Positions 8,608 through 57,198 of a stretch of 64,000 nt of DNA are shown here, one piece after another. The stretch is taken from positions 51,052 through 115,051 of the forward strand of contig DAHXNY010000001.1 in the NCBI GenBank assembly GCA_027365175.1, read 5' to 3'. The stretch's first letter is position 1, and every line of letters starts with the position of its first letter. This stretch comes from Candidatus Micrarchaeota archaeon (lineage in GTDB: Archaea; Micrarchaeota; Micrarchaeia; Micrarchaeales; CABMGC01). The notes under the pieces were generated by a model. That model saw only the letters and a list, made by a program, of their open reading frames with translations. It was not told the DNA's origin and made no database searches. The translations under genes were made by a program, and so were the position numbers.

Positions 8608-8795
8608 AAAATCGTATCTGAATGGAATTATGATGATATAAAAGGCTTTTCTTCTGTATTAGACGAATGCGAAGGATTATTTATATTGAATGCCATAATA
8701 AGTTTTGCCCGTAACTGACCGTGGAAATGTTTGTGGAAAATTCGGATACGTGCTGGCAGTCAAGGAGTATGCCTTAACAGTTGATGGAAGAATGA

Positions 8796-8887
8796 TGGGC
8801 CCGAGGAGATTTGAACTCCTGACCTACGGCTAACTTAGGCTTGCGCCGTATAAGACCGCCGCTCTGACCAGGCTGAGCTACGAGCCC
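8796..8887 (-). tRNA. tRNA-Ile(UAU) with a 17-nt canonical (37/38) intron
   Basis: Hand-folded cloverleaf: acceptor GGGCTCG/CGGGCCC, D arm GCTC..GAGC, T arm AGGAG-TTCAAAT-CTCCT, anticodon loop CT-TAT-A|intron|A. The intron (8832-8848) forms a bulge-helix-bulge with central helix CTTA/TAAG, 3-nt bulges TAC and TTA, and an inner stem GGC-GCAA-GCC. The body is close to typical archaeal tRNA-Ile. No CCA is encoded. Confidence 0.85.
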
Positions 8888-8981
8888 ATGATTTATAGGG
8901 ATTAAGTTGCTTTATTTATATGAGTTTCTGTTTAACGGACTTATTTTATATAGCAGTTAATATAATATTATATGTGATTTT

Positions 8982-14549: not shown

Positions 14550-15140
14550 TTAGCTAAGCAGGGTTCTTGTCTGATATCTGCCTCTTTTCTTTATTTCGTC
14601 AAGTCTGGAGATCACCTTCAGGTACTCCTTTGAGACTGAGGCGTAGCCCTTCCTGGCATTTGCATAGGCAGCTTTGCTTATGGATCTTTCCAGCAGGAGC
14701 AGGTCCAGTGCCTTCTCCTCCTCGCTGTTGGAGAAATTGCCCAGGCCGAAGTCTATTATGTATGGACCGTCCTTCGTGAGCATAAGGTTTGCTGAGGTGA
14801 AATCCCCGTGGGTTATCCCTTGGGCATGCATATAACCTAGGAACCTGCCGATGGTGCGCATATCTTTTGCAGTAGGTTTTGAATCCTTAAGCAGCTTTCC
14901 CTCTATCTTCTGCATGAATATAGAGTATTTGCCTGTTGCAGCCACTCCTGGTACGGCTGCGCCTGCCTTTTTTGCCAAGACCATTAGCTTCGCTTCCCTC
15001 TTCGTTCTCCTCTCCCGGAGTTCTTCGTCTATTCTGGCTATGCGCCATGCCTTCCTGTTTCTTGCCTTTACAAGCAGGGGTTTGCCCGAAAGCCTTATCT
15101 CGAACATTACCGCTTCTGCACCCTCGCTCAGCCTTTCCAT
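14550..15140 (-). CDS. bud32: Bud32/PRPK-type KEOPS kinase
   Basis: Small RIO-like kinase with HGDFTSANLM and IIDFGL motifs. It overlaps kae1 by 13 nt. SD GGTGA lies 4 nt upstream of the ATG. Confidence 0.85.
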   Translation of the reverse strand: MERLSEGAEAVMFEIRLSGKPLLVKARNRKAWRIARIDEELRERRTKREAKLMVLAKKAGAAVPGVAATGKYSIFMQKIEGKLLKDSKPTAKDMRTIGRFLGYMHAQGITHGDFTSANLMLTKDGPYIIDFGLGNFSNSEEEKALDLLLLERSISKAAYANARKGYASVSKEYLKVISRLDEIKKRGRYQTRTLLS

Positions 15141-16099
15141 AGCTTCACCTCGTCAATCCTGTACCTCTGTTCTATATTGCATTCCTGCAGCTTCGCTTTT
15201 GTCCCGTGCGCAAGCATCTGCTCTGCTACAAGAGCTATCATCGCACCGTTGTCCGCATTGAAGGGGTCTTCAGCATATCCGAATCTTATGTGATGCTCCT
15301 CTGCCATCCCATTTAGCATGCGCTTCAGCCTTTTTGACTGTGCAACTCCTCCGCATACGCACAATTCCTTGGAGTTTGTCAGGAGCAGCGCACGCTCCGT
15401 GGCCTCTGTGAGCATAGCATATGCAGTCTCCTGCACCGAGAAGCATATGTCCTTATTGTCGTGCTTTCCTTTCATCTTTGAAGCGTGCGTCAGAATACCT
15501 GTAAATGAAAAATCCATTCCCTTAACAGTATAGGGCATGTCTATGTATCTGCCGTTCTCTGCAGTCTTTTCCACTGTTGATCCCCATGCAGGATATAATT
15601 CAAGAGACCTTGCAAGCGAATCGAGCATGTTGCCTATCCCTATGTCAAAGGTCTCTCCAAGTATTTTGTATCTGTCGCCGTATTTTTTTAATATCTGTGA
15701 GTTTCCACCGCTTACGTAAAGGGCCAGCGGATCCTTGAGTTTTGCCCTTTTCTTCGCTATCTCAATATGGCCTATCCCATGATTTACGGGGACTATTGGA
15801 ACATTAAGCTTTTTTGCAAGAGTCTTTGCGGAGAGCATGCCTACGTGCAGGCAGTGGCCTATCCCAGGCCCCTTGGTATAACCTATCCCGCTGATGTCCT
15901 TGAAGCTTATCCCTGCCTCCTGCAGTGCTTCTTGTATCACTCCTGCAGCGTTATTCAGATGCGTCTCTGCTACCTCTTTGGGTATCATGCCTTTGCCGCC
16001 TATCTTGTACATGGCCTTTGCATTTGCTATCACTCTTCCGTTATCGACTATACCTACGCCAAATGTATGGGCGCTGCTCTCTATTCCAAGTACTGCCAT
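15128..16099 (-). CDS. kae1: Kae1 tRNA N6-adenosine threonylcarbamoyltransferase
   Basis: Motifs LGIESSAHTFGVGIV and GPGIGHCLHVG. The ORF track begins at TTG 16135. I prefer ATG 16099 (MAVLGIESS), which matches the usual Kae1 N-terminus. Confidence 0.9.
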   Translation of the reverse strand: MAVLGIESSAHTFGVGIVDNGRVIANAKAMYKIGGKGMIPKEVAETHLNNAAGVIQEALQEAGISFKDISGIGYTKGPGIGHCLHVGMLSAKTLAKKLNVPIVPVNHGIGHIEIAKKRAKLKDPLALYVSGGNSQILKKYGDRYKILGETFDIGIGNMLDSLARSLELYPAWGSTVEKTAENGRYIDMPYTVKGMDFSFTGILTHASKMKGKHDNKDICFSVQETAYAMLTEATERALLLTNSKELCVCGGVAQSKRLKRMLNGMAEEHHIRFGYAEDPFNADNGAMIALVAEQMLAHGTKAKLQECNIEQRYRIDEVKLWKG

Positions 16100-16109
16100 T
16101 GAATCAGGA

Positions 16110-17225
16110 TTAATCGTGTAACATGAACGCTTCAAGCTTCTTCTCGAGCTTCTTCTTTGCCTCTCTGTGCTCCTTCATGAATTTGTTTATGCGCATAGAA
16201 AGATCCTTCTTGTGCTCTCCTGCAAGAAGGCTGCCGTCCCTTTCCCCTTCGAATATCGCATTTAGCTTCTTGTCTTCGGGCTCAAACATGTATTTGTAGT
16301 ATTGGCAGACTGCGCATTTGTCCGGGTTTCCGCCATGCTTCTTCTGCAGCTCTATTGTTGCCTGCTGTCCGGTTATCGCCTTGTTTACCTTCTTCACAAC
16401 TGTAGCTTCATCATCAGAGAGATATATCGTATCGTTAGGGTCGCTTGATGACATCTTCGGGTTCATTGAGAGCCCGGGCATGAACTTCGATACTAGAGAT
16501 GCAGGCTTGTAATAACCAAGTTTCGATATGGCATTCCTTGCTACCCTGAAGTGCACATCCTGATCAACCCCCATAGGTATCAGGCATGGCACATTCTTCT
16601 CTGCCTGCACCGACTTCAAGAATGCAGGTACTGCCTGGAATGATGTGTAGAATAGCGCGCCTATGTTTGTGTCATTGCCAAATCCGAACGCATCCTTTAT
16701 TATCGAGTAAGTTATGTACTTAGAGACACGGACTGCCTGCTTGTACAGGGTCTTTGCGTACTCGGTATCAAGGAATATCTGCGTCTTCCTGCTGTCGAAT
16801 CCCAAGGCAGCTATGTCCAGCGCATCCTCCATGGCAAGCGTATGCCCGTTATCTAGTGTGAATGCAGGATTGCGCTTGACAAGGAACTTCTCCTCGTCAG
16901 GTATCATTATGAGAACCTCGGCTCCGAATCTGTCCTGAAGCCATTTTGCCATCTGGAACTGCATTGTTTGCGCTATAGTCATTCCTCCCGAAGGAGCTAT
17001 GCCAGTATAAACGTAGAATTTGTCTCCTTTTTCATACTGGTCAAGAAGCCAGTTGATATCCCTTTCTGCAAAATATATGCCTCTCCGCAACATATAGTTG
17101 CTGCCCTTTGCCAGTCTCTCCAGTCTCTCTGTGGTTTCACTCGTTAGAGGCTTCAGCCCGAAATCAGTAATTACTTTGGTGTAGTCTATGTCTCCTTTGA
17201 CTTCGTATGGGTTTACGGTCTGCAT
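16110..17225 (-). CDS. trpS: tryptophanyl-tRNA synthetase (archaeal/eukaryotic type)
   Basis: Class Ic architecture with a YTGIAPSG region and KMSSS (a KMSKS variant). 371 aa. TyrRS is not fully excluded. Confidence 0.8.
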   Translation of the reverse strand: MQTVNPYEVKGDIDYTKVITDFGLKPLTSETTERLERLAKGSNYMLRRGIYFAERDINWLLDQYEKGDKFYVYTGIAPSGGMTIAQTMQFQMAKWLQDRFGAEVLIMIPDEEKFLVKRNPAFTLDNGHTLAMEDALDIAALGFDSRKTQIFLDTEYAKTLYKQAVRVSKYITYSIIKDAFGFGNDTNIGALFYTSFQAVPAFLKSVQAEKNVPCLIPMGVDQDVHFRVARNAISKLGYYKPASLVSKFMPGLSMNPKMSSSDPNDTIYLSDDEATVVKKVNKAITGQQATIELQKKHGGNPDKCAVCQYYKYMFEPEDKKLNAIFEGERDGSLLAGEHKKDLSMRINKFMKEHREAKKKLEKKLEAFMLHD

Positions 17226-17430: not shown

Positions 17431-20400
17431 ATGTCAAAATCCCATGCGGATAAGGATTCGGCGCGGTCCAAAAAACGTTCGAAGAAGGAGCAGATATCAT
17501 TAGAGTACATGATGATATTTGCATTCGCATTCCTTATAGTTGCGGTTGTTGTGGTCTATCTTTATGTCACAGGAGTGCACAATACCACTTATACTAATTC
17601 ATACTGCTATCTGACACCGGATATGCCCTGCCAGGGAATGTATGTGATAGGCAATTCCGTTTCTCCAACAAATGCAAAGGCATATGTGATATTTACTAAT
17701 GAAAAGGGCATCGGCATAAACGTTAGGCCTGGGTCTTTCTACTTCTACCCTAGTGCAAGCAATACAGTTTATTCTGGGGAGTGCATCCCCTCCAATGTAC
17801 CGCAGGGTGGTGTTGCCGTATGCAATGTTACTGTTAACAACTTGAACGGAGGATTATCTGCAGGAGAGCAGGTGAACCCTAAGTTCAATATCGCATACAG
17901 TGTTTGCAGCAATAATTATTGTAATGGATTGAGTGCAAATGCCCCTGTATTCAATACCACAGGCACAGGCACAACATATGTTGCAACCGGTGCCCCATCG
18001 CTGTATTATGTTACTGTAAAGAGTAGTAGCATAAACGTTACTGTGGATGGAGTGGAGTATGCACCAGGTTCAAAACTGGCAGTGTTTAAAGGGATAAGAT
18101 ACACTCTGTTCGGAGAGGTTCCTGCAGGTTATAATTTTGGTTCATGGACAGGCACAGGTGGAATCATTATTGTCTCTTCTAGTTCACAGACAACTGCGTT
18201 TACAGCTTCTGCAAATGGCACAGTATACGGAAGTAAGACAGCGATAACCTCTTCAACGTCTTCTACTTCTACAACATCGACAACTTCTAGCGTATTGTTT
18301 TATCAATTAAATGAGTATGCCAATCCTTCTGCAGAAGGGACGGTATCTCCGGGCACAGGAAGCTATCCTGCCGGTTCCTCAGTAACAATAAAGGCAACAC
18401 CTGACACAGGGTATCATTTTTTAGATTGGACGTGTTATGGCACGGGATGCTATTCTGGAACAAGCTCTTCTGCGACATTGACTATGGATACGGCTAGTAT
18501 CCAGGAGACGGCTAATTTTGCAATAAACAGTTACACATTTACAGAATCGGCAAATCCGTCTGCAGGAGGAACTGCGACTCCTGGGACCGGGACTTATAAT
18601 TACGGTTCTTCCGTAACACTTGGAGAGACTCCTAACGCAGGATACCATTTTGTTGACTGGACCTGCTCTGGAACCGGATGCTATTCTGGAACAAGCACTT
18701 CGCCAACCATCATAATAGAGGGTGCAATTACAGAGACGGCCAATTTCGCACTGGACTCATATACACTTACTACCGGAGCGAGCCCCTCCGGCAGCGGAAC
18801 AGTTTCCCCATCAAGCGGAAATTATAATTATGGATCGGCTGTAACCATATCTGAAACGCCAGTTGCATCCAACACCTTCACAGGATGGTCGTGCAGCGGG
18901 ACAGGCTGCTATTCAGGGACAGCAACATCAAACACCATAATAATCAAGAGTGATATGACCGAGACCGCAAGCTTCTCTCCTTACCAGCCTTTCACAGAAC
19001 TTGTCAATAACGCAGGTTATGGGACGGTATCTCCGGGATCAAATAGCGTACCTTACGGATCTGTAATAGATATAACCGAGGCTCCCACCACAGGGCACTA
19101 TTTCGTTAGCTGGACAGGAAGCGGGACAGGAAGCTACAGCGGAACTGCAACATCGGCGTATGTCACTGTGAATAACCCAATTACAGAGACGGCCAATTTC
19201 GCCGCGTATACATATGTGGTATCCACAGCAGTAAGCCCGTCAGGTTCAGGAAGCGCAACAGGAGGCGGAACTTATGACTATGGATCATCTGCAAGTTTAT
19301 CTGCTATAGCAAATTCAGGATATGCATTCTCCTCATGGTCATGCACAGGCACATGCCCTAGCGGCACCTCATCTACATCAAATCCATGGACGGTGACTGT
19401 AACAGGCACTGCAACCTATACTGCACAGTTTATAGATACATGTGGTGGTTCTGTATCGTATACAGTTCCTAATGGCATACCTTACACGGTGACAGTGCCT
19501 GCAGGTTGTACAACCGCAACTGTCACGCTCAATGGAGCCGGAGGAGGCGGAGGAGGAGATTCCACATTGATATATGAGACCGAGTCTACTGGAGGAAGCA
19601 CATTTTATTCTTGTGAGCCGTTTAGCACCAAATTTGTGACAGGCAGTGGTATGATAGATGTGCCTGGAGGCAGTGGTGGTAATGGGGCGAGTCTGTCAGG
19701 GAACATCGCAGTATCAGCTGGACAGGCATTATATGTATGGGTTGGTGGCGGAGGAGGCGGAGGATCTTCTGATCCGAATACCCAGCCTGCAAATGCAGCA
19801 GGTGGGGCAGGAGGGACTAATGGAGGAGGAGCAGGAGGAAGCGGCGTTACTGCTACAGAGGTCGCACCGTATGGATATTGCCCTTCAGGCGGAGCCGGAG
19901 GAGGCGGAGGGTTCTCTGCAATAGGAACCTCGACAACATCGGCAGGCTGGCTTGCTGCTGCCGGAGGAGGGGGAGGGGGAGGAGGTGCAGCATATCAAAG
20001 CGATCGGATAAATCCTGAAGGAGGAAGTGGCGGGGCAAGTGGAAATGGTGGAAGCAATGGATATACCACCGTAAGCGGAGAAGGCATTGGAGGAGGAGGC
20101 GCGACACTGTCTTCTGCAGGAAGTGGCGGGGCATACGGAGGTTCCCCAGGTTCATCGCTATCAGGAGGCGCAGGTTATACAGGATTTAATGTGCACACGG
20201 TTTCATGTTCTTCGTTCGCAAGCCAGGTGCCAGTTACAGGAGGAGGTAGCGGGGGTGGCGGAGGAGGCTACTATGGTGGTGGCGGAGGAGGAAGTAATAA
20301 TCAAAATACAAATCCATGCTCTACAGCGTCCGGAGGAGGAGGCGGAGGAGGATCTTCGTGGTGGTCAGGCTCTTTCATAGAGACAGGATATACTGCAAAT

Positions 20401-20514
20401 AGTATTGTAGGAGGAGCTACAGGTTGCTATTATGGAGGAGATTATCCACTTTCATGCGGTACCAGTGGCAATCCGGGCAACGATGGATCGGTTACAATCA
20501 CATGGTCGGGATGA
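17431..20514 (+). CDS. large cell-surface protein: class III (type IV pilin-like) signal peptide, pilin-like head, Ser/Thr linker, 5-6 InlB-B-type repeats, C-terminal glycine-rich (ALK/LTK GRD-like) domain
   Basis: The N-terminus is a basic stretch followed by QISLEYMMIFAFAFLIVAVVVV (DUF361-like QxSxEY plus a hydrophobic helix). Repeats have a 76-aa period and end in ETANFA. The C-terminal pattern is TVPAGCTTATVTLNGAGGGGGG..GQALYVWVGGGGGGG..GGGGGGYYGGGGGG. Confidence 0.85.
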   Translation: MSKSHADKDSARSKKRSKKEQISLEYMMIFAFAFLIVAVVVVYLYVTGVHNTTYTNSYCYLTPDMPCQGMYVIGNSVSPTNAKAYVIFTNEKGIGINVRPGSFYFYPSASNTVYSGECIPSNVPQGGVAVCNVTVNNLNGGLSAGEQVNPKFNIAYSVCSNNYCNGLSANAPVFNTTGTGTTYVATGAPSLYYVTVKSSSINVTVDGVEYAPGSKLAVFKGIRYTLFGEVPAGYNFGSWTGTGGIIIVSSSSQTTAFTASANGTVYGSKTAITSSTSSTSTTSTTSSVLFYQLNEYANPSAEGTVSPGTGSYPAGSSVTIKATPDTGYHFLDWTCYGTGCYSGTSSSATLTMDTASIQETANFAINSYTFTESANPSAGGTATPGTGTYNYGSSVTLGETPNAGYHFVDWTCSGTGCYSGTSTSPTIIIEGAITETANFALDSYTLTTGASPSGSGTVSPSSGNYNYGSAVTISETPVASNTFTGWSCSGTGCYSGTATSNTIIIKSDMTETASFSPYQPFTELVNNAGYGTVSPGSNSVPYGSVIDITEAPTTGHYFVSWTGSGTGSYSGTATSAYVTVNNPITETANFAAYTYVVSTAVSPSGSGSATGGGTYDYGSSASLSAIANSGYAFSSWSCTGTCPSGTSSTSNPWTVTVTGTATYTAQFIDTCGGSVSYTVPNGIPYTVTVPAGCTTATVTLNGAGGGGGGDSTLIYETESTGGSTFYSCEPFSTKFVTGSGMIDVPGGSGGNGASLSGNIAVSAGQALYVWVGGGGGGGSSDPNTQPANAAGGAGGTNGGGAGGSGVTATEVAPYGYCPSGGAGGGGGFSAIGTSTTSAGWLAAAGGGGGGGGAAYQSDRINPEGGSGGASGNGGSNGYTTVSGEGIGGGGATLSSAGSGGAYGGSPGSSLSGGAGYTGFNVHTVSCSSFASQVPVTGGGSGGGGGGYYGGGGGGSNNQNTNPCSTASGGGGGGGSSWWSGSFIETGYTANSIVGGATGCYYGGDYPLSCGTSGNPGNDGSVTITWSG
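18295..19431 (+). repeat. five tandem ~228-bp (76-aa) coding repeats inside the surface-protein gene
   Basis: The aa repeats are anchored by (A/S)NF(A/S) at residues 361, 437, 513 and 588 and AQF at 665. Shared core: ANPSxxGTxxPGTGxYxYGSSVT..TP..GYHFxxWTCxGTGCYSGT. A more degenerate copy precedes the Ser/Thr linker. Confidence 0.85.
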
Positions 20515-28150: not shown

Positions 28151-28252
28151 GGGCTCTTGGCGCAACGGTAGCGCGCCTGCATGGCATGCAGGAGGTTGCG
28201 GGTTCAAATGGCCTTTAGAGTTTCTATGGGCCTGCAAGTCCCGCAGAGTCCA
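28151..28252 (+). tRNA. tRNA-Ala(GGC) with a 30-nt non-canonical intron in the T-loop (59/60)
   Basis: Acceptor GGGCTCT/AGAGTCC with the G3:U70 Ala identity pair. D arm GCGC-AACGGTA-GCGC. Anticodon arm CCTGC-ATGGCAT-GCAGG. T stem GCGGG...CCCGC is interrupted after TTCAAA by 28209-28238. The BHB-like fold has outer helix = T stem, central TTCA/TGCA (one U-C mismatch), bulges AAT and AGT, and inner helix GGCC/GGCC. Confidence 0.85.
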
Positions 28253-40745: not shown

Positions 40746-41900
40746 TCATGGCTGCATCCAATCTATCTCATAATAGTCGTTTTTGCTGCCTTTAAGGCGA
40801 ATCTGCCTTACCTTGTAGTACGTGACTGCAGTCTCCCTATCGGCTATGGCAAGTATCAGCTCGAGGCCCTTCCTGCTTGCGCTCTTTATGGCTCCGGATA
40901 TCTCGCTCCCGCCTATGTGCTCATCCTCGCTGAGAGAGAGCATGGCATATCTTGGTGCTCCGTTGGACGGGTTCTCTGCCTCCCCTCCCCTCCTGTGATA
41001 CAGGATATAGTCTACAGCAATATTGTTCGCCCTTGCTGATCCTGGTATTGCGAGTATGAAGGTCTTCCTTACGGAATGCGCAACCCTTATCGCCCTTGCC
41101 CATTCCGATATAAGCATCTTGGCATCCTTTGGAAATACCTGTATGACATGCTTTGAGTGCGTCCATCCGTTCGTAGTGTTTGTAGGTTTTGCCCCGGGGA
41201 AATAGACCCTGAAGTGGGTGCCGAACTTGAACCCTGTCTTTATCACATAGCCCTTCTCCCTCCAGTCCTTGTATACCGAATAGAGTTTTAGGAAGTCTTT
41301 CCTTCCGGCATTCCCGTTGTCTATCAGCTCCGCACGCGTTGCGTTATTTATGTTTACTGTCCTGCTCTCTGTAAGGAATAATGCCTCGAATATATCTATC
41401 TTGTTTAGCTTTCCCCTCTCAGAGGCTTTGTATGAGCCGTATTGGCCTATCCAGTAATTGTCGTACAGCTCTTTTCCCTTTTCATTGTCCTTAAGTATTG
41501 TTATGAGGTCTGTCTTGAAGAAGGTGCCGCTTATCCCTATTGCCTTTATCTTTAGCTTTGACCCCGGATACTCCTTTATCTTTGCCTTTGCGCGTTTGGC
41601 ATATTTGAAATCAGGCTCCTTTATTATTAGCCCCCGGTCCCTCCAGTCCTTGTAAGTAAGATATCGGGCTATGAACTTGCGGTTGTTCCAGAACCTTGAG
41701 ATAGAGTCGTTGAATGAGATAATTTTGCCTGCTTTTGTGCACTCCGCGTTGCGCAGTTCCATTAGATAAAGCGCTTCCACATTTGAAAGGACAAGGGTCT
41801 TCTTTTCCTGCTTCCCGAAGAACCCTTTCTTCAGTATGTCCTTGGTGGATTGGTCCTTGACTGTGAATCTTCCGCCTGGAGAGCTATCGATCTTGAGCAT
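40746..41900 (-). CDS. endA: tRNA-splicing endonuclease, three-unit single-chain (epsilon2/ARMAN type)
   Basis: The EndA N-subdomain plus linker occurs twice (EALYLMELRNA..YLTYKDWRDRGLIIK and FEALFLTESR..YSVYKDWREKGYVIKTGFKFGTHFRVY). A catalytic HSKHVIQV follows, then a third C-terminal-like unit (RYAMLSLSE..RKGLELILAIADRETAVTYYKV). 384 aa. Confidence 0.8.
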   Translation of the reverse strand: MLKIDSSPGGRFTVKDQSTKDILKKGFFGKQEKKTLVLSNVEALYLMELRNAECTKAGKIISFNDSISRFWNNRKFIARYLTYKDWRDRGLIIKEPDFKYAKRAKAKIKEYPGSKLKIKAIGISGTFFKTDLITILKDNEKGKELYDNYWIGQYGSYKASERGKLNKIDIFEALFLTESRTVNINNATRAELIDNGNAGRKDFLKLYSVYKDWREKGYVIKTGFKFGTHFRVYFPGAKPTNTTNGWTHSKHVIQVFPKDAKMLISEWARAIRVAHSVRKTFILAIPGSARANNIAVDYILYHRRGGEAENPSNGAPRYAMLSLSEDEHIGGSEISGAIKSASRKGLELILAIADRETAVTYYKVRQIRLKGSKNDYYEIDWMQP

Positions 41901-50668: not shown

Positions 50669-50743
50669 TAGCGAGAGGTGGATTTGAACCACCGATCTCC
50701 GGGTTATGAGCCCGGCGGGCACTCCAGTCTACCCTACCTCGCT
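50669..50743 (-). tRNA. initiator tRNA-Met(CAU)
   Basis: Hand-folded with an A1:U72 acceptor end (AGCGAGG/TCTCGCT). The anticodon stem CCGGG/CCCGG carries three consecutive G:C pairs above the loop CTCATAA. T arm GGTGG-TTCAAAT-CCACC. Confidence 0.85.
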
Positions 50744-51731: not shown

Positions 51732-51806
51732 TGGGCCCGGAGGGATTTGAACCCTCGACTTGCTGGTTAAGAGCCAGCCACTCTGACCAAACTGAGTTAC
51801 GGACCC
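51732..51806 (-). tRNA. tRNA-Lys(CUU)
   Basis: Hand-folded: acceptor GGGTCCG/CGGGCCC, anticodon arm GCTGG-CTCTTAA-CCAGC, T arm GAGGG-TTCAAAT-CCCTC. 75 nt. Confidence 0.9.
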
Positions 51807-52693
51807 GGTTGTCTTCTCTTCCTGGCTGCGCCAGCCATATTCATCATGATAAGGCTTGCAAGATGTGCGGTTATCCCCCCGGAATCATACCTGGGGTTCA
51901 GCTCCATCACATCAAAACCAAGATTTACGCTCTTTCCTATAGTAGAAGCAATATATAATATTTCCCTTGCTGCAAGACCGCCAGGCACCGGGGTGCCGAC
52001 TCCAGGAGCGAATGCAGGATCAACAGAGTCAAGGTCTATAGAGACATACACATTGTCTGTTATTATGCTTCTTGCATACTTCGAAACAGCAACTATCCCC
52101 TCCTCTATTATCCTGTCCATTCCAACAAACTTGATCCCTGCTTCTTCAACTACGGCCTTCTCCTCCCTCTCTATAGCACGAGCTCCTATTATCAGGCTCG
52201 AGCTAGGCTCAACATTCTCCAAAGCAAGAACATCATGCACCACCGAACCGTAATATCTTCCGGCAGAGCCTATGCTGTCAGGGTGCGCATCTATATATAC
52301 AAAACTCCACGAATCAACGCAAGAATCTATGCCCTTAAGTATGTCATAGGTTATCGAATGGTCTCCCCCTATGCAACCCACCACTCTCTTATCTAAAACC
52401 TGCCTCCTTGCAAAACCCGCCGTCCTTGCCTTCGAGATGTTCCCGGCATCATAACAATTAAGCGCACCCAAACCTAACCTGCTATACATGACAGATAAAC
52501 CATTTCCCCTCTTTACAGCATCGAATTTCACAGACGCTGCCCTTGCAGCAGCCGGGCCACCTGAACTTCCCCTCCTAGGCGCCCTTGAGCCTCTCTCACT
52601 CGCAACTCCAAATACGACAGTATCTGCATCTTTTTCACCAGGAGAGGTGCACCACGGGAAAACAAGTTTTCTGCCTTTTGCCAAAAATAACAC
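51797..52693 (-). CDS. speB: agmatinase/ureohydrolase (arginase family)
   Basis: Mn-binding motifs GGDHSITY, IDAHPD and SIDLDSVDPAFAPGVGTP. The 3' end overlaps tRNA-Lys by 10 nt on the same strand. Confidence 0.85.
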   Translation of the reverse strand: MLFLAKGRKLVFPWCTSPGEKDADTVVFGVASERGSRAPRRGSSGGPAAARAASVKFDAVKRGNGLSVMYSRLGLGALNCYDAGNISKARTAGFARRQVLDKRVVGCIGGDHSITYDILKGIDSCVDSWSFVYIDAHPDSIGSAGRYYGSVVHDVLALENVEPSSSLIIGARAIEREEKAVVEEAGIKFVGMDRIIEEGIVAVSKYARSIITDNVYVSIDLDSVDPAFAPGVGTPVPGGLAAREILYIASTIGKSVNLGFDVMELNPRYDSGGITAHLASLIMMNMAGAARKRRQPGP

Positions 52694-52862: not shown

Positions 52863-54767
52863 ATGGCTGACGAAACTTACGATGCTTCAAAGATAATTGT
52901 GCTTGAAGGAGCGCAGGGCATACGTAAGAGACCGTCGATGTATATAGGCTCAACAGGACCTTCCGGGATAATACACCTGCTGTACGAAGTTATGGATAAC
53001 GCGGTAGACGAATCCTCTGCAGGATACTGCAAAGACATAAAGATAAAACTGTACAAGCAGGACGGAGCAGACATAGCCGAGATATCTGACGACGGAAGGG
53101 GGATACCTGTAGGGATAATGGAAAAGTACGGAAAGAGCGCTCTCGAGGTCATAATGACAACACTGCACAAAGGGGCTAAATTCGAAAATGATGTTTACAA
53201 GGTATCTGGAGGACTCCATGGGGTGGGGCTTACCGTTGTAAACGCGTTGTCAGAATTCACAGAAGTCACGGTAAAAAGAAACGGTAACATATACAGGCAG
53301 ACCTTCAGCAGGGGGCTGCCAACATCAAAGCTCGAAGTTATAGGGGAGACCAAAGAGACAGGAACAACAGTAAAATTCAAGCCGGACCCGGAGATATTCA
53401 GCGTGAATACATTTGACATAGCGATGCTGAACGAAAGGTCCAGATACATCAGCTACACCAACGTCGGACTGCGTATCATAATAACGGATGAGCGCTTTGG
53501 GGACAAAGTGGAGGAGACCTATTATTCTGAAAACGGAATAATAGATTTTGTAGAGTATATAAACAGGGAAAGGTCTCCTATAACTTCTATAATATACGGC
53601 AAAACCACAGCAGATTCTACTACTGTAGAGTATGCGATGCAGTACACAGAATCATACGATGAAAAGATAGAATCCTTCGTAAACAGCATAAAAATGAATG
53701 AAGGAGGGACGCACCTTTCAGGCTTCCATGCAGCGTTGACAAGGGCAATAACGAATTATATAGACAAGAACAAGTCTCTCAACGCAAAGGCGAAGGTAAC
53801 CGGAGACGATGCAAAGGAAGGCCTTACTGCCATAGTCAGCATAAAGATGCAGAATCCGGAATTCGAGGGCCAGACCAAGGAAAAATTGGGAAACGTGAAG
53901 ATGAAGACCCTCGTAGAGACCTTTGCATACCAGAGCATTTCAAGGTATCTGGAGGAGCACCCTTCCGATGCCAAGTCAATAATAAGGAAGATAACTGAGG
54001 CAGCAAATGCGCGCGACGCTGCAAGGCGCGCACGCGAACTTGAGAGGAAGAAGAGCATATTCTCAAGCGCGGTTCTCCCTGGCAAGCTATCTGACTGCAT
54101 ACTCAGCGACCCTGAAAAGACCGAGCTCTTCATAGTAGAGGGAGAGAGCGCAGGAGGGTCGAGCAAGCAGGGAAGGGACAAGAACATACAGGCAATACTC
54201 CCATTAAGGGGAAAGATACTCAATGTAGAGAAGGCAAGCTACGAAAAGATATTCGATAACAAGGAGATAAAAACCATGATTACTGCCTTTGGCACAGGCA
54301 TAAACGAGACCTTCAATGCCGCAAACATACGCTACAAGAAGATAATAATAATGACCGATGCCGACGTTGACGGAAGCCACATAAGGACACTGCTGCTTAC
54401 GTTCTTTTACAGGTACATGCGCAAGATAATAGAACTCGGATACGTGTATGCTGCACAGCCCCCGCTCTATAGGATCGGGAAGGGCAAGGACGAATACTAC
54501 TGTTATAGCGATGAAGAGCTCAATGAGAAGCGCAAGGAGTACGGGGAGAACGTAGAGATACAGAGATACAAAGGACTCGGAGAGATGAACTACGAGCAGC
54601 TATGGGAAACAACCATGAACCCGAAGAACAGGAAGCTCAAGAAAATATCTATAGAAGACGGCCTTCATGCTGACGAACTCTTCACCATACTCATGGGCGC
54701 TGACGTAGCCAAGAGGAGGAGATATCTGCAGGAGCATGCAAAGGAGGTAAAAACACTTGACATATAG
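52863..54767 (+). CDS. gyrB: DNA gyrase subunit B
   Basis: GHKL ATPase motifs (LYEVMDNAVDE, GGLHGVG), Toprim motifs (EGESAGGS, IMTDADVDGSHI) and QRYKGLGEM. Confidence 0.95.
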   Translation: MADETYDASKIIVLEGAQGIRKRPSMYIGSTGPSGIIHLLYEVMDNAVDESSAGYCKDIKIKLYKQDGADIAEISDDGRGIPVGIMEKYGKSALEVIMTTLHKGAKFENDVYKVSGGLHGVGLTVVNALSEFTEVTVKRNGNIYRQTFSRGLPTSKLEVIGETKETGTTVKFKPDPEIFSVNTFDIAMLNERSRYISYTNVGLRIIITDERFGDKVEETYYSENGIIDFVEYINRERSPITSIIYGKTTADSTTVEYAMQYTESYDEKIESFVNSIKMNEGGTHLSGFHAALTRAITNYIDKNKSLNAKAKVTGDDAKEGLTAIVSIKMQNPEFEGQTKEKLGNVKMKTLVETFAYQSISRYLEEHPSDAKSIIRKITEAANARDAARRARELERKKSIFSSAVLPGKLSDCILSDPEKTELFIVEGESAGGSSKQGRDKNIQAILPLRGKILNVEKASYEKIFDNKEIKTMITAFGTGINETFNAANIRYKKIIIMTDADVDGSHIRTLLLTFFYRYMRKIIELGYVYAAQPPLYRIGKGKDEYYCYSDEELNEKRKEYGENVEIQRYKGLGEMNYEQLWETTMNPKNRKLKKISIEDGLHADELFTILMGADVAKRRRYLQEHAKEVKTLDI

Positions 54768-54774
54768 TGGGAGT

Positions 54775-57198
54775 ATGACCGAAGTACAAAACGTATTTTT
54801 AGAGGATGAGCTGCAAAGGAGCTACATAGACTACGCGATGAGCGTAATCATAGGCAGAGCCATCCCTGACGCCAGAGACGGACTCAAACCGGTGCAAAGA
54901 AGAATACTATACACAATGTACGGCCAGAAGAACTTCCACAACCTGCCTACAAAGAAGAGTGCCAGGATAACAGGAGACTGCATGGGTAGATATCACCCTC
55001 ACGGAGACATGGCGATATACGATGCTCTTGCAAGGATGACGCAGGACTTCTCCATGAGGTACATGCTAGCGGAAGGGCAGGGAAACTTCGGTTCTATAGA
55101 CGGGGATCCTCCGGCAGCAATGAGGTATACGGAGGTAAAGCTTACCAAGATCTCTGAGGATATGCTCGAGGACCTAGACAAAGAGACTGTGAACCTTGTC
55201 CCCAATTTCGACAACACTGAAAAGGAGCCTACAATACTGCCTTCAAAGATACCGAACCTGCTTGTCAACGGCGCAACCGGCATAGCAGTAGGCGTGGCAA
55301 CAAGCATTCCCCCTCACAACCTTGGGGAGGTATGCGAAGCTGTAATTTACCGCATAAAGAATAAGGAAAGCACACCGGAAGACATACTGAAGATAATAAA
55401 AGGCCCTGACTTCCCTACAGGTGGCATAGCTGTAATGTCAGCAAACGCGCTAAACGGATATAAGTACGGCAGAGGCCAGGTATCTGTAAAGGCAAAGGCG
55501 GAAATAGATGACGAACTCCACAAAATAATAATCACCGAAATACCTTACAACCTCAACAAATCCTCCTTGATAGAGGGAATAGTAAACATAGTGAAGGACA
55601 AAAAAACCGAAGACATAAAGGACATAAGGGACGAGACCGACAAGAGCGGCATACGTATTGTCATAGACCTGAAAAACGGTGCGTCAGGGGAATCGGTACT
55701 CAACACCCTCTACAGGCACACCCAGCTGCAGACAACAATGCCGATAATAAATCTTGCAGTGATAGATACTGCCCTCAAGAACCTGAACATAGTCGACATG
55801 CTCGACGCGTTCATCAACCACCGCAGGGAAGTAATACTTAGAAGATCAAAGTACGAGCGCGAAGTCGCTGCAAACAGGCTGCACATAGTGGAGGGCCTGC
55901 TAATAGCAATAACCAACATAGACGACGTAATTAAGCTGATAAAAAGCAGCGACGAAGTCTCCGGAGCAAGGAAGAAGCTCGTAAAGGATTACGCCCTGTC
56001 AGAGAAGCAGGCAACTGCGATACTTGACATGAAACTCAGCAGGCTTACCCATCTTGAAAACAACTCGCTGGACAGGGAGAAGACCGAACTGCAGGGCAAG
56101 GTCAAATACTACAACGAAGTAATAGATAGCAGCGAAAAAATAGACGGGATAATAATACAAGAAACCGAGAAGGCGATAAAGGACTATGCAGACAAAAGAA
56201 GGACTGAGATAGTATACTCGGACGAGTCCGCGGACATAACTGAGGAAGACATGATCACAGACGAAGAGATAACGGTGATAAGGACAAAGACAGGATATGT
56301 CAAGAGGCTGAACAAGGAGAACTACAGGGAGCAGGCGAGGGGAGGAAAGGGGATCATATCGATAAACCTGAAAGAGGGAGACTATGTCAACCAGATACTC
56401 CGCTGCAATAATAAGGACTTCATACTCTGCATAACAAGCACCGGAAGGGCATACTGGCTAAAAGCATACAAAATACCCGAAACAGGAAGATATTCAGAAG
56501 GCAAATCGATAGTAAATCTGATACACGCAGAAGAAGAGAAGATAGTCTCAATGATACCTATACGCAATTTCGAAGCATCGACAATGGCGTTCATAACTGC
56601 AAGAGGCACTGCGAAGAGGATGAGCGCAAGGCTGTTTGCACGGCCAAGATCCAACGGAGTGCGTGCTATAAAACTGGCAGCGGGAGACGAGATTGTAGAC
56701 GCGATATGCTACTCTGCCAAGAAATACCTGTTAATCTCCACAAAGAAAGGCAAAATAATCAAGTTCGAAGAGCAGAGCATGAGGACAATAGGAAGGACAG
56801 GTATGGGGGTCAGAGGAATAAAGCTCAGGCAGGACGACAGAGTAACGAATATAATAGCCGCAAGTGAGTTCGGAAGCGTCTTCACAGTCACTGAGAAGGG
56901 ATACGGCAAGATCACCGAGATAACCAGGTACAGGACGCAGAACAGGGGAGGAAAGGGGATCATAAACCTGAAGGTTTCAGAAAAGACCGGGGATGTATCA
57001 AAGACACTATACATGTCACACGAGCAGCAGGCGATACTGATAAATTCAAAGGGAGTGAGCATAACGATACCCACTTCATCTATCAGGGTAACCGGAAGGG
57101 CAGCGTCAGGGGTCAGGCTGATGAAGGTTGAACAAGGGACAAAGATAATAGACTGCATCATACTTAACGAGGAGCAGCAAAAACCCGCAGAGGTTTAA
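54775..57198 (+). CDS. gyrA: DNA gyrase subunit A
   Basis: Motifs [19 protein letters not shown] and AAMRYTE (catalytic Tyr), plus a C-terminal beta-pinwheel repeat region. ATG 54775 is preferred. The ORF track start is TTG 54757. Confidence 0.95.

Follow-up and report, generated by a model that had tools for sequence, protein, structure and literature searches.

The 64,000-nt window analyzed here (contig DAHXNY010000001.1, positions 51,052 to 115,051 of the forward strand) contains a gene for a tRNA-Ile whose UAU anticodon is encoded in the genome. This gene very probably provides the functional AUA-decoding tRNA-Ile of a Micrarchaeota (ARMAN-type, DPANN) archaeon, in which it would replace tRNA-Ile2(CAU) and TiaS. 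Archaea usually read AUA with tRNA-Ile2(CAU), in which C34 is converted to agm2C (agmatidine) by TiaS.

The pre-tRNA-Ile(UAU) gene lies on the minus strand (8887..8796), is 92 nt long and encodes no CCA. Exon 1 (8887..8849), assigned by hand reading and the Rfam alignment, comprises tRNA positions 1-37 and includes the anticodon U34-A35-U36 (TAT, 8852..8850), on which ARAGORN, Rfam and hand reading agree. A 17-nt intron, CGGCGCAAGCCUAAGUU (8848..8832), found by hand reading and by its bulge-helix-bulge (BHB) minimum free energy (MFE) fold, is inserted at 37/38 and followed by exon 2 (8831..8796, positions 38-73), the last base of which is the discriminator A73. Read as the reverse complement, the gene runs GGGCUCG UA GCUC AGCCUGGUCA GAGC G GCGGU CUUAUA, then the intron CGGCGCAAGCCUAAGUU, then A GCCGU AGGUC AGGAG UUCAAAU CUCCU CGGGCCC A. 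ARAGORN reported a tRNA-Ile(tat) at 8794-8888, and Rfam model RF00005 matched 8887..8796 over the full model (1-71) at 57.4 bits (gathering score 29; E 9e-10), with an 18-nt insert after CUUAUA in the alignment. The two programs and the hand reading were concordant on the tRNA-Ile(UAU) gene, and the MFE structure of the spliced 75-nt RNA is an exact cloverleaf. An earlier sequence-only reading had given the positions of the tRNA and its intron and the details of the BHB, all of which proved correct by ARAGORN, Rfam and the MFE fold; the minus strand had been left unstated. The same three lines of evidence support its claim of a genomically encoded UAU anticodon on an archaeal tRNA-Ile-type body with a canonical BHB intron at 37/38.

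The anticodon arm and the intron, folded together, give the MFE structure (((((((((...(((....)))))))...))))), in which a 5-bp helix h, a UUA bulge, a 4-bp central helix H (CUUA/UAAG), a UAC bulge and an inner helix h' (GGC/GCC, closed by a GCAA loop) are arranged as hBHBh'. The splice sites fall past the second base of each 3-nt bulge (UA/C and UU/A, the slash marking the cut). The fold therefore has the features of the archaeal canonical BHB, namely the hBHBh' arrangement, the 4-bp helix and the cuts at 37/38. Shuffled introns matched both H (4/4) and h' (at least 3 bp) in only 102 of 200,000 cases (0.05%); the BHB of the window intron is beyond chance. U34 and A35 pair with the intron in the central helix, and T-A-T at positions 34-36 is the only register compatible with the BHB. 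When the full precursor was folded, its MFE structure had a 3x3 internal loop in place of the BHB, with the anticodon stem displaced by 3 nt. We rejected this register as an artefact of global folding because the isolated arm folds as a BHB and because covariation backs the cloverleaf register.

Isoleucine identity, as defined by work in E. coli and yeast, depends on the set A73, A37, A38, C4:G69 and U12:A23. All of these elements (5/5) are present in the window gene, and the tRNA body fits the Ile-type pattern used in the genome-contig scan described below. The anticodon and these identity elements together point to an isoleucine tRNA. Upstream of the gene, a TATA-like box, TATAAATA (8913..8920, minus strand), was recognized by sequence reading at -33 to -26 from the mature 5' end, within the intergenic region common to the gene and the divergent SRP54 gene. 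A comparison of the regions upstream of the six window tRNAs revealed no conserved promoter motif; the AT-rich, TATA-like strings seen there lie at variable distances. Therefore, the assignment of this box as the putative archaeal promoter of the tRNA gene is tentative.

To place the gene among its relatives, genome contigs were scanned with a pattern combining the Ile-type body and CTTATA, which returned at least 120 genes, at least 51 of them archaeal and at least 69 bacterial. The archaeal genomes are mostly DPANN, and the groups among the matches listed are Micrarchaeota, Woesearchaeota, Iainarchaeota, Aenigmarchaeota, Pacearchaeota, Undinarchaeota, Altiarchaeota and Nanoarchaeia. The bacterial genomes are mostly CPR/Patescibacteria, with some Ignavibacteria, and hosts among the matches listed include Peribacteria, Saccharibacteria, Doudnabacteria, Magasanikbacteria and others. 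Given these counts, genomically encoded tRNA-Ile(UAU) is common in reduced-genome lineages. The sequence-only reading had named Nanoarchaeum and Korarchaeum as lineages with such a tRNA, which the literature confirms (PMC6000648, PMC8450103), but its statement that only a few lineages have one is outdated, considering the 2011 report on ARMAN-2, -4 and -5 (PMC3239211) and the match of at least 51 archaeal genomes in our scan.

Introns vary widely among these genes. Among the matches listed, 12 of the 51 archaeal genes have no intron, 22 carry a single insert at 37/38, 15 carry a second intron in the T loop besides the one at 37/38, and 2 were left unclassified for introns within the stretch examined. 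The central helix is fully paired (4/4) in 15 of the 22 single-insert genes listed and paired at 3/4 positions in 6. We also observed a second insert of 13-100 nt, directly following UUCAAA of the T loop, in L029, L087, L118, L116, L080, L043, L053, L054, L112, L038, L039, L044 and L064. From their sequences, the DPANN tRNA-Ile(UAU) genes with a T-loop insert look like two-intron pre-tRNAs. Such a DPANN-style two-intron tRNA-Ile(UAU) was seen in L015, L029 and L087, three MAGs named 'uncultured Methanosarcinales archaeon', and the L087 gene hardly differs, over the stretch retrieved, from the one in the Woesearchaeota MAG L118. These three labels look doubtful.

The exons of the window gene are 100% identical to those of a Micrarchaeaceae MAG locus (L121, 4892-4991), the closest ortholog with a 25-nt intron among the matches listed, and the two introns (17 nt in the window, 25 nt in L121) are unrelated. 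The introns of L046 and L063 measure 13 nt and 15 nt, respectively. The intron-less orthologs L069, L105, L010 and L100 have an anticodon arm, GGUCUUAUAAGCC, identical to that of the window gene, and the close relatives L013, L023 and L034 share this arm and also lack an intron. In the intron-less orthologs, CUUAUAA is read directly in the loop. From the comparison of L121, L069, L105, L046 and L063 with the window, turnover of the intron is rapid while the tRNA itself stays unchanged.

Furthermore, we aligned 31 archaeal mature tRNA-Ile(UAU) sequences from among the matches listed. In this alignment, 99.8% of the stem cells are paired and nine pairs are changed on both sides, and a covariation score as high as that of the alignment came up in none of 500 shuffles. 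With the 3' partners displaced by 1-3 columns, pairing fell to 22-51%. The search pattern prescribed the 5' strand of the acceptor, the D arm and CUUAUA; the covariation arises in parts that it left free, namely the anticodon stem, the T stem and acceptor pairs 5-7. This covariation, together with exons identical to those of L121 around an unrelated intron, demonstrates purifying selection on the mature tRNA.

These comparisons bear on the possibility that splicing occurs at other positions and leaves a mature anticodon other than UAU, to which we assign next to no probability. Such a reading could draw on ARAGORN, which gives other anticodons for the orthologs L032, L046, L120, L063, L079 and L071. 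However, ARAGORN and Infernal both call UAU for the window gene, and the geometry of its BHB places both cuts at 37/38. CUUAUAA, moreover, stands in the loop of intron-less orthologs, and the same loop emerges after BHB-guided intron removal in all resolved orthologs. The sequence-only reading had held that a different cloverleaf register, placing another triplet at 34-36, would overturn its assignment; UAU is the only BHB-compatible register and covariation backs the cloverleaf. ARAGORN labeled intron-bearing orthologs (the six above plus L026, L055, L058 and L088) as Ser(tga), Thr(tgt), Leu(taa) and Ala(tgc). The wrong anticodons arise because the intron is misplaced, and this misplacement is a likely cause of annotation errors in DPANN MAGs; spliced as the BHB directs, all ten orthologs yield CUUAUAA.

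The window has a G+C content of 44-48%. In a BLASTN search against the loci retrieved by the tRNA pattern scan, it matched Micrarchaeota MAGs at 67-73% DNA identity over kilobases, and the divergent arrangement of tRNA-Ile(UAU) and SRP54 is kept in L120, L032, L046, L063 and L069. Since the matches are to Micrarchaeota MAGs and the tRNA splicing endonuclease EndA encoded in the window is 56% identical to that of ARMAN-2, the host, judged by these similarities, is a Micrarchaeon (ARMAN-2-like, DPANN) related to but distinct from ARMAN-2. Elsewhere in the window, a 1027-aa protein (17431-20514, plus strand) contains five divergent InlB B-repeat (Flg_new_2) domains and probably serves this episymbiont at its surface or in adhesion. 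An arginase-family protein (51797-52693, minus strand), possibly an agmatinase, adjoins a tRNA-Lys gene, and the arginase-family gene is followed by bacterial-type DNA gyrase B and A genes (52863-57198, plus strand).

We next consider the components of the usual archaeal system. The only CAU tRNA detected in the roughly 80 kb covered by the window and its flanks of about 16 kb, out of a genome of about 1 Mb, lies at 50743..50669 on the minus strand (ARAGORN and Rfam alignment), and no tRNA-Ile2(CAU) was found in this DNA. This CAU tRNA has A1:U72 and the anticodon stem pairs G29G30G31:C39C40C41; A1:U72 and the three G:C pairs identify it as initiator-type and not as tRNA-Ile2(CAU). A permissive Rfam scan of the window (E of at most 1) returned no extra tRNA-like match except an intron-interrupted tRNA-Ala (28151-28252). 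The TiaS Pfam domain was detected neither in about 48 scanned window ORFs nor, according to precomputed Pfam annotation, in the SRP54, GTPase and CysRS genes of the tRNA neighborhood or the genes of the flanks of about 16 kb. A literature search on TiaS in DPANN returned nothing relevant. In the genomes of ARMAN-2, -4 and -5, tRNA-Ile(UAU) is present and TiaS and tRNA-Ile(CAU) are both missing, as reported in 2011 (PMC3239211). By analogy with these published genomes, TiaS and tRNA-Ile2(CAU) would also be missing from the window host beyond the 80 kb or so inspected. The window tRNA would share the task of the canonical system, which is to read AUA and not AUG, but would do so with a genomic T at position 34 instead of a C34 converted to agm2C, no TiaS having been found in the roughly 80 kb.

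Counting AUA codons had been proposed by the sequence-only reading as a check. Of the 18,847 codons in 49 window ORFs, 1170 (6.2%, or 62 per 1000) are AUA, more than for any other codon; AUA supplies 76% of the Ile codons, and none of these ORFs lacks it. With AUA as the most used codon, the tRNA-Ile(UAU) gene is clearly needed. AUA also makes up 63-80% of Ile codons in the Micrarchaeaceae-like loci L013, L034, L046, L100, L105 and L121. The bias goes beyond a simple base-composition effect, since it is seen even at loci of 55-58% G+C. Among the loci of the matches listed, the median share of AUA among Ile codons is 17% in bacteria versus about 50% in archaea.

TiaS and a tRNA-Ile2(CAU) could in principle be encoded elsewhere, with the UAU gene redundant, dispensable or decaying into a pseudogene. 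The inspected DNA, about 80 kb of the genome, leaves room for such genes, and yet we give this alternative very little probability. The exons are fully conserved with L121 though the intron has been wholly replaced, compensatory covariation is strong across the 31 archaeal orthologs, synteny with SRP54 is kept across Micrarchaeota, AUA is the top codon, and the sister ARMAN genomes have neither TiaS nor tRNA-Ile(CAU) (PMC3239211). A functional tRNA-Ile(UAU) in place of tRNA-Ile2(CAU) and TiaS is the reading we retain.

The window also encodes enzymes that may act on this tRNA. An epsilon2-type (three-unit) EndA of 384 aa is encoded at 40746..41900 on the minus strand and carries the Pfam domains tRNA_int_endo_N and tRNA_int_endo. 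Over residues 8-384 it is 56% identical to the EndA of Candidatus Micrarchaeum acidiphilum ARMAN-2 (PDB 4FZ2; E 2.3e-148), and the Tyr-Lys pair of the ARMAN-specific loop is kept at chain positions 160-161. From these similarities, EndA is the enzyme expected to excise the tRNA-Ile(UAU) intron. Two further genes on the minus strand adjoin each other, with slightly overlapping ORFs, and encode Kae1/TsaD (15128-16135; Pfam TsaD, E 9.5e-70) and a small RIO/Bud32-like kinase (14550-15140; RIO1/kinase matches). Kae1/TsaD and Bud32 form the KEOPS core, which makes t6A37 on ANN-decoding tRNAs (U36-A37). With U36-A37, the window tRNA-Ile(UAU) is, on the basis of established t6A biology, an expected substrate of KEOPS.

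A second intron-bearing tRNA gene was observed in the window. The gene for tRNA-Ala(GGC), with G3:U70 and a T-loop intron of about 30 nt, lies at 28151-28252 on the plus strand (ARAGORN and Rfam). Its intron is non-canonical, occupies about 28209-28238 at position 59/60 and forms a GGCC/GGCC hairpin. ARAGORN mis-folded this gene as 28151-28224, the true 3' end (UCCCGC AGAGUCC A) being downstream of its call, and Rfam scored it at 28.7 bits, just below the gathering score. A non-canonical intron fits the broad specificity of an epsilon2 endonuclease.

We propose the following pathway for the tRNA-Ile(UAU). Transcription may start under the direction of the TATA-like box at -33 to -26 and would yield the 92-nt precursor, whose anticodon arm and 17-nt intron are predicted to form the strict bulge-helix-bulge. 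The epsilon2 EndA, encoded 32 kb away in the window, would cut this BHB at 37/38, after which the exons would be ligated and CCA added. KEOPS would form t6A37, IleRS would charge the 75-nt tRNA, and the U34-A35-U36 anticodon would read AUA in place of tRNA-Ile2(CAU) and TiaS.

In yeast, pre-tRNA-Ile(UAU) is pseudouridylated by Pus1, and the formation of Psi34 and Psi36 in eukaryotes is intron-dependent. The eukaryotic cytosolic tRNA-Ile(UAU) resembles the window tRNA in its UAU anticodon and 37/38 intron but differs in its intron-dependent Psi-A-Psi anticodon, whereas relatives of the window gene dispense with the intron. A eukaryote-like, intron-dependent modification of U34 and/or U36 (e.g. 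pseudouridine) that blocks AUG reading would be compatible with the recurrence of a 37/38 intron in Korarchaeum (PMC6000648), in ARMAN-2 and in most DPANN orthologs among the matches listed, and with the pairing of U34 and A35 with the intron in the central BHB helix. In contrast, L069, L105, L010, L100, L013, L023 and L034 have the same anticodon arm and no intron, intron length and sequence turn over freely, and neither a pseudouridine synthase nor a guide RNA turned up near the gene. Unmodified U34 is, furthermore, enough in Mycoplasma mobile. Because close orthologs lack the intron, an intron-dependent modification is unlikely to be essential, and we accord this explanation little probability.

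The risk that U34 misreads AUG, raised by the sequence-only reading, is real. In Haloferax, U34 mutants of tRNA-Ile acquired cnm5U and bound codons in the order AUA>AUG>AUU, and the haloarchaeal IleRS charged a U34 mutant tRNA-Ile poorly (PMC3895270). We assume that IleRS is adapted to the UAU tRNA in the window host. The further claim that a specific U34 modification is implied was too strong, as U34 is unmodified in the tRNA-Ile(UAU) of M. mobile (PMC3575796), and both this tRNA and a B. subtilis suppressor tRNA with unmodified U34 are reported to decode AUA with no significant misreading of AUG (PMC3895270, discussion). Since unmodified U34 suffices in these two cases, a dedicated U34 modification in the window tRNA is possible but not implied. 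It is conceivable, although we consider it doubtful, that Micrarchaeal U34 carries an uncharacterised modification or a eukaryote-like pseudouridine, or that a novel co-evolution of tRNA, IleRS and ribosome is involved, such that AUA is read without Ile being inserted at AUG.

The closest known system is that of the ARMAN archaea, which belong to the same phylum-level lineage and whose tRNA-Ile(UAU) has the same anticodon (PMC3239211, 2011; Hirata et al. 2012, PMC3488258; PMC12397907, 2025), likewise with a 37/38 intron in a strict hBHBh' structure; the three-unit epsilon2 endonuclease that processes the ARMAN intron has an ortholog in the window. ARMAN-2 differs from the window host in being another species (EndA 56% identity) and in the length of its intron (25 nt vs 17 nt). 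Korarchaeum cryptofilum and Nanoarchaeum equitans ('tRNA-Ile3(UAU)') also have a genomic UAU that replaces tRNA-Ile2(CAU) (PMC6000648; PMC8450103), and the Korarchaeum gene likewise bears an intron (PMC6000648), but these lineages are unrelated to the window host and were compared by description only. The Korarchaeum tRNA was reported to derive from the organism's own tRNA-Ile(GAU) (PMC6000648; PMC8450103). The tRNA-Ile2(UAU) of M. mobile also uses UAU for AUA and has t6A37, in an organism without a C34-modifying enzyme (Taniguchi et al. 2013, PMC3575796). Unlike the window gene, it is bacterial, has no intron and is paired with a bacterial-type IleRS with specific adaptations (PMC3575796), and AUA is not known as a dominant codon in M. 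mobile.

UAU-based AUA reading has been known for ARMAN/Micrarchaeota since 2011, and the window gene is an ordinary ortholog in another Micrarchaeon. Splicing of the ARMAN kind has already been characterized biochemically in the same lineage, and the gene matters little beyond its correct annotation. U34 chemistry and the discrimination between AUA and AUG likewise constitute an already known question that is not newly raised by the window gene. The window does, by analogy with the ARMAN genomes as regards the absence of TiaS, add what would be a further Micrarchaeum-like genome with UAU-based, TiaS-free AUA reading, and it holds the two partners of ARMAN splicing as already known, the substrate (the BHB intron) and the enzyme (the epsilon2 EndA). 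With AUA as the top codon, the problem of keeping an archaeal U34 off AUG is a pressing one for this lineage. If the doubtful case of a special U34 chemistry or co-evolution were true, no natural test case would be stronger than this lineage for a U34 telling A from G in a split AUN box.
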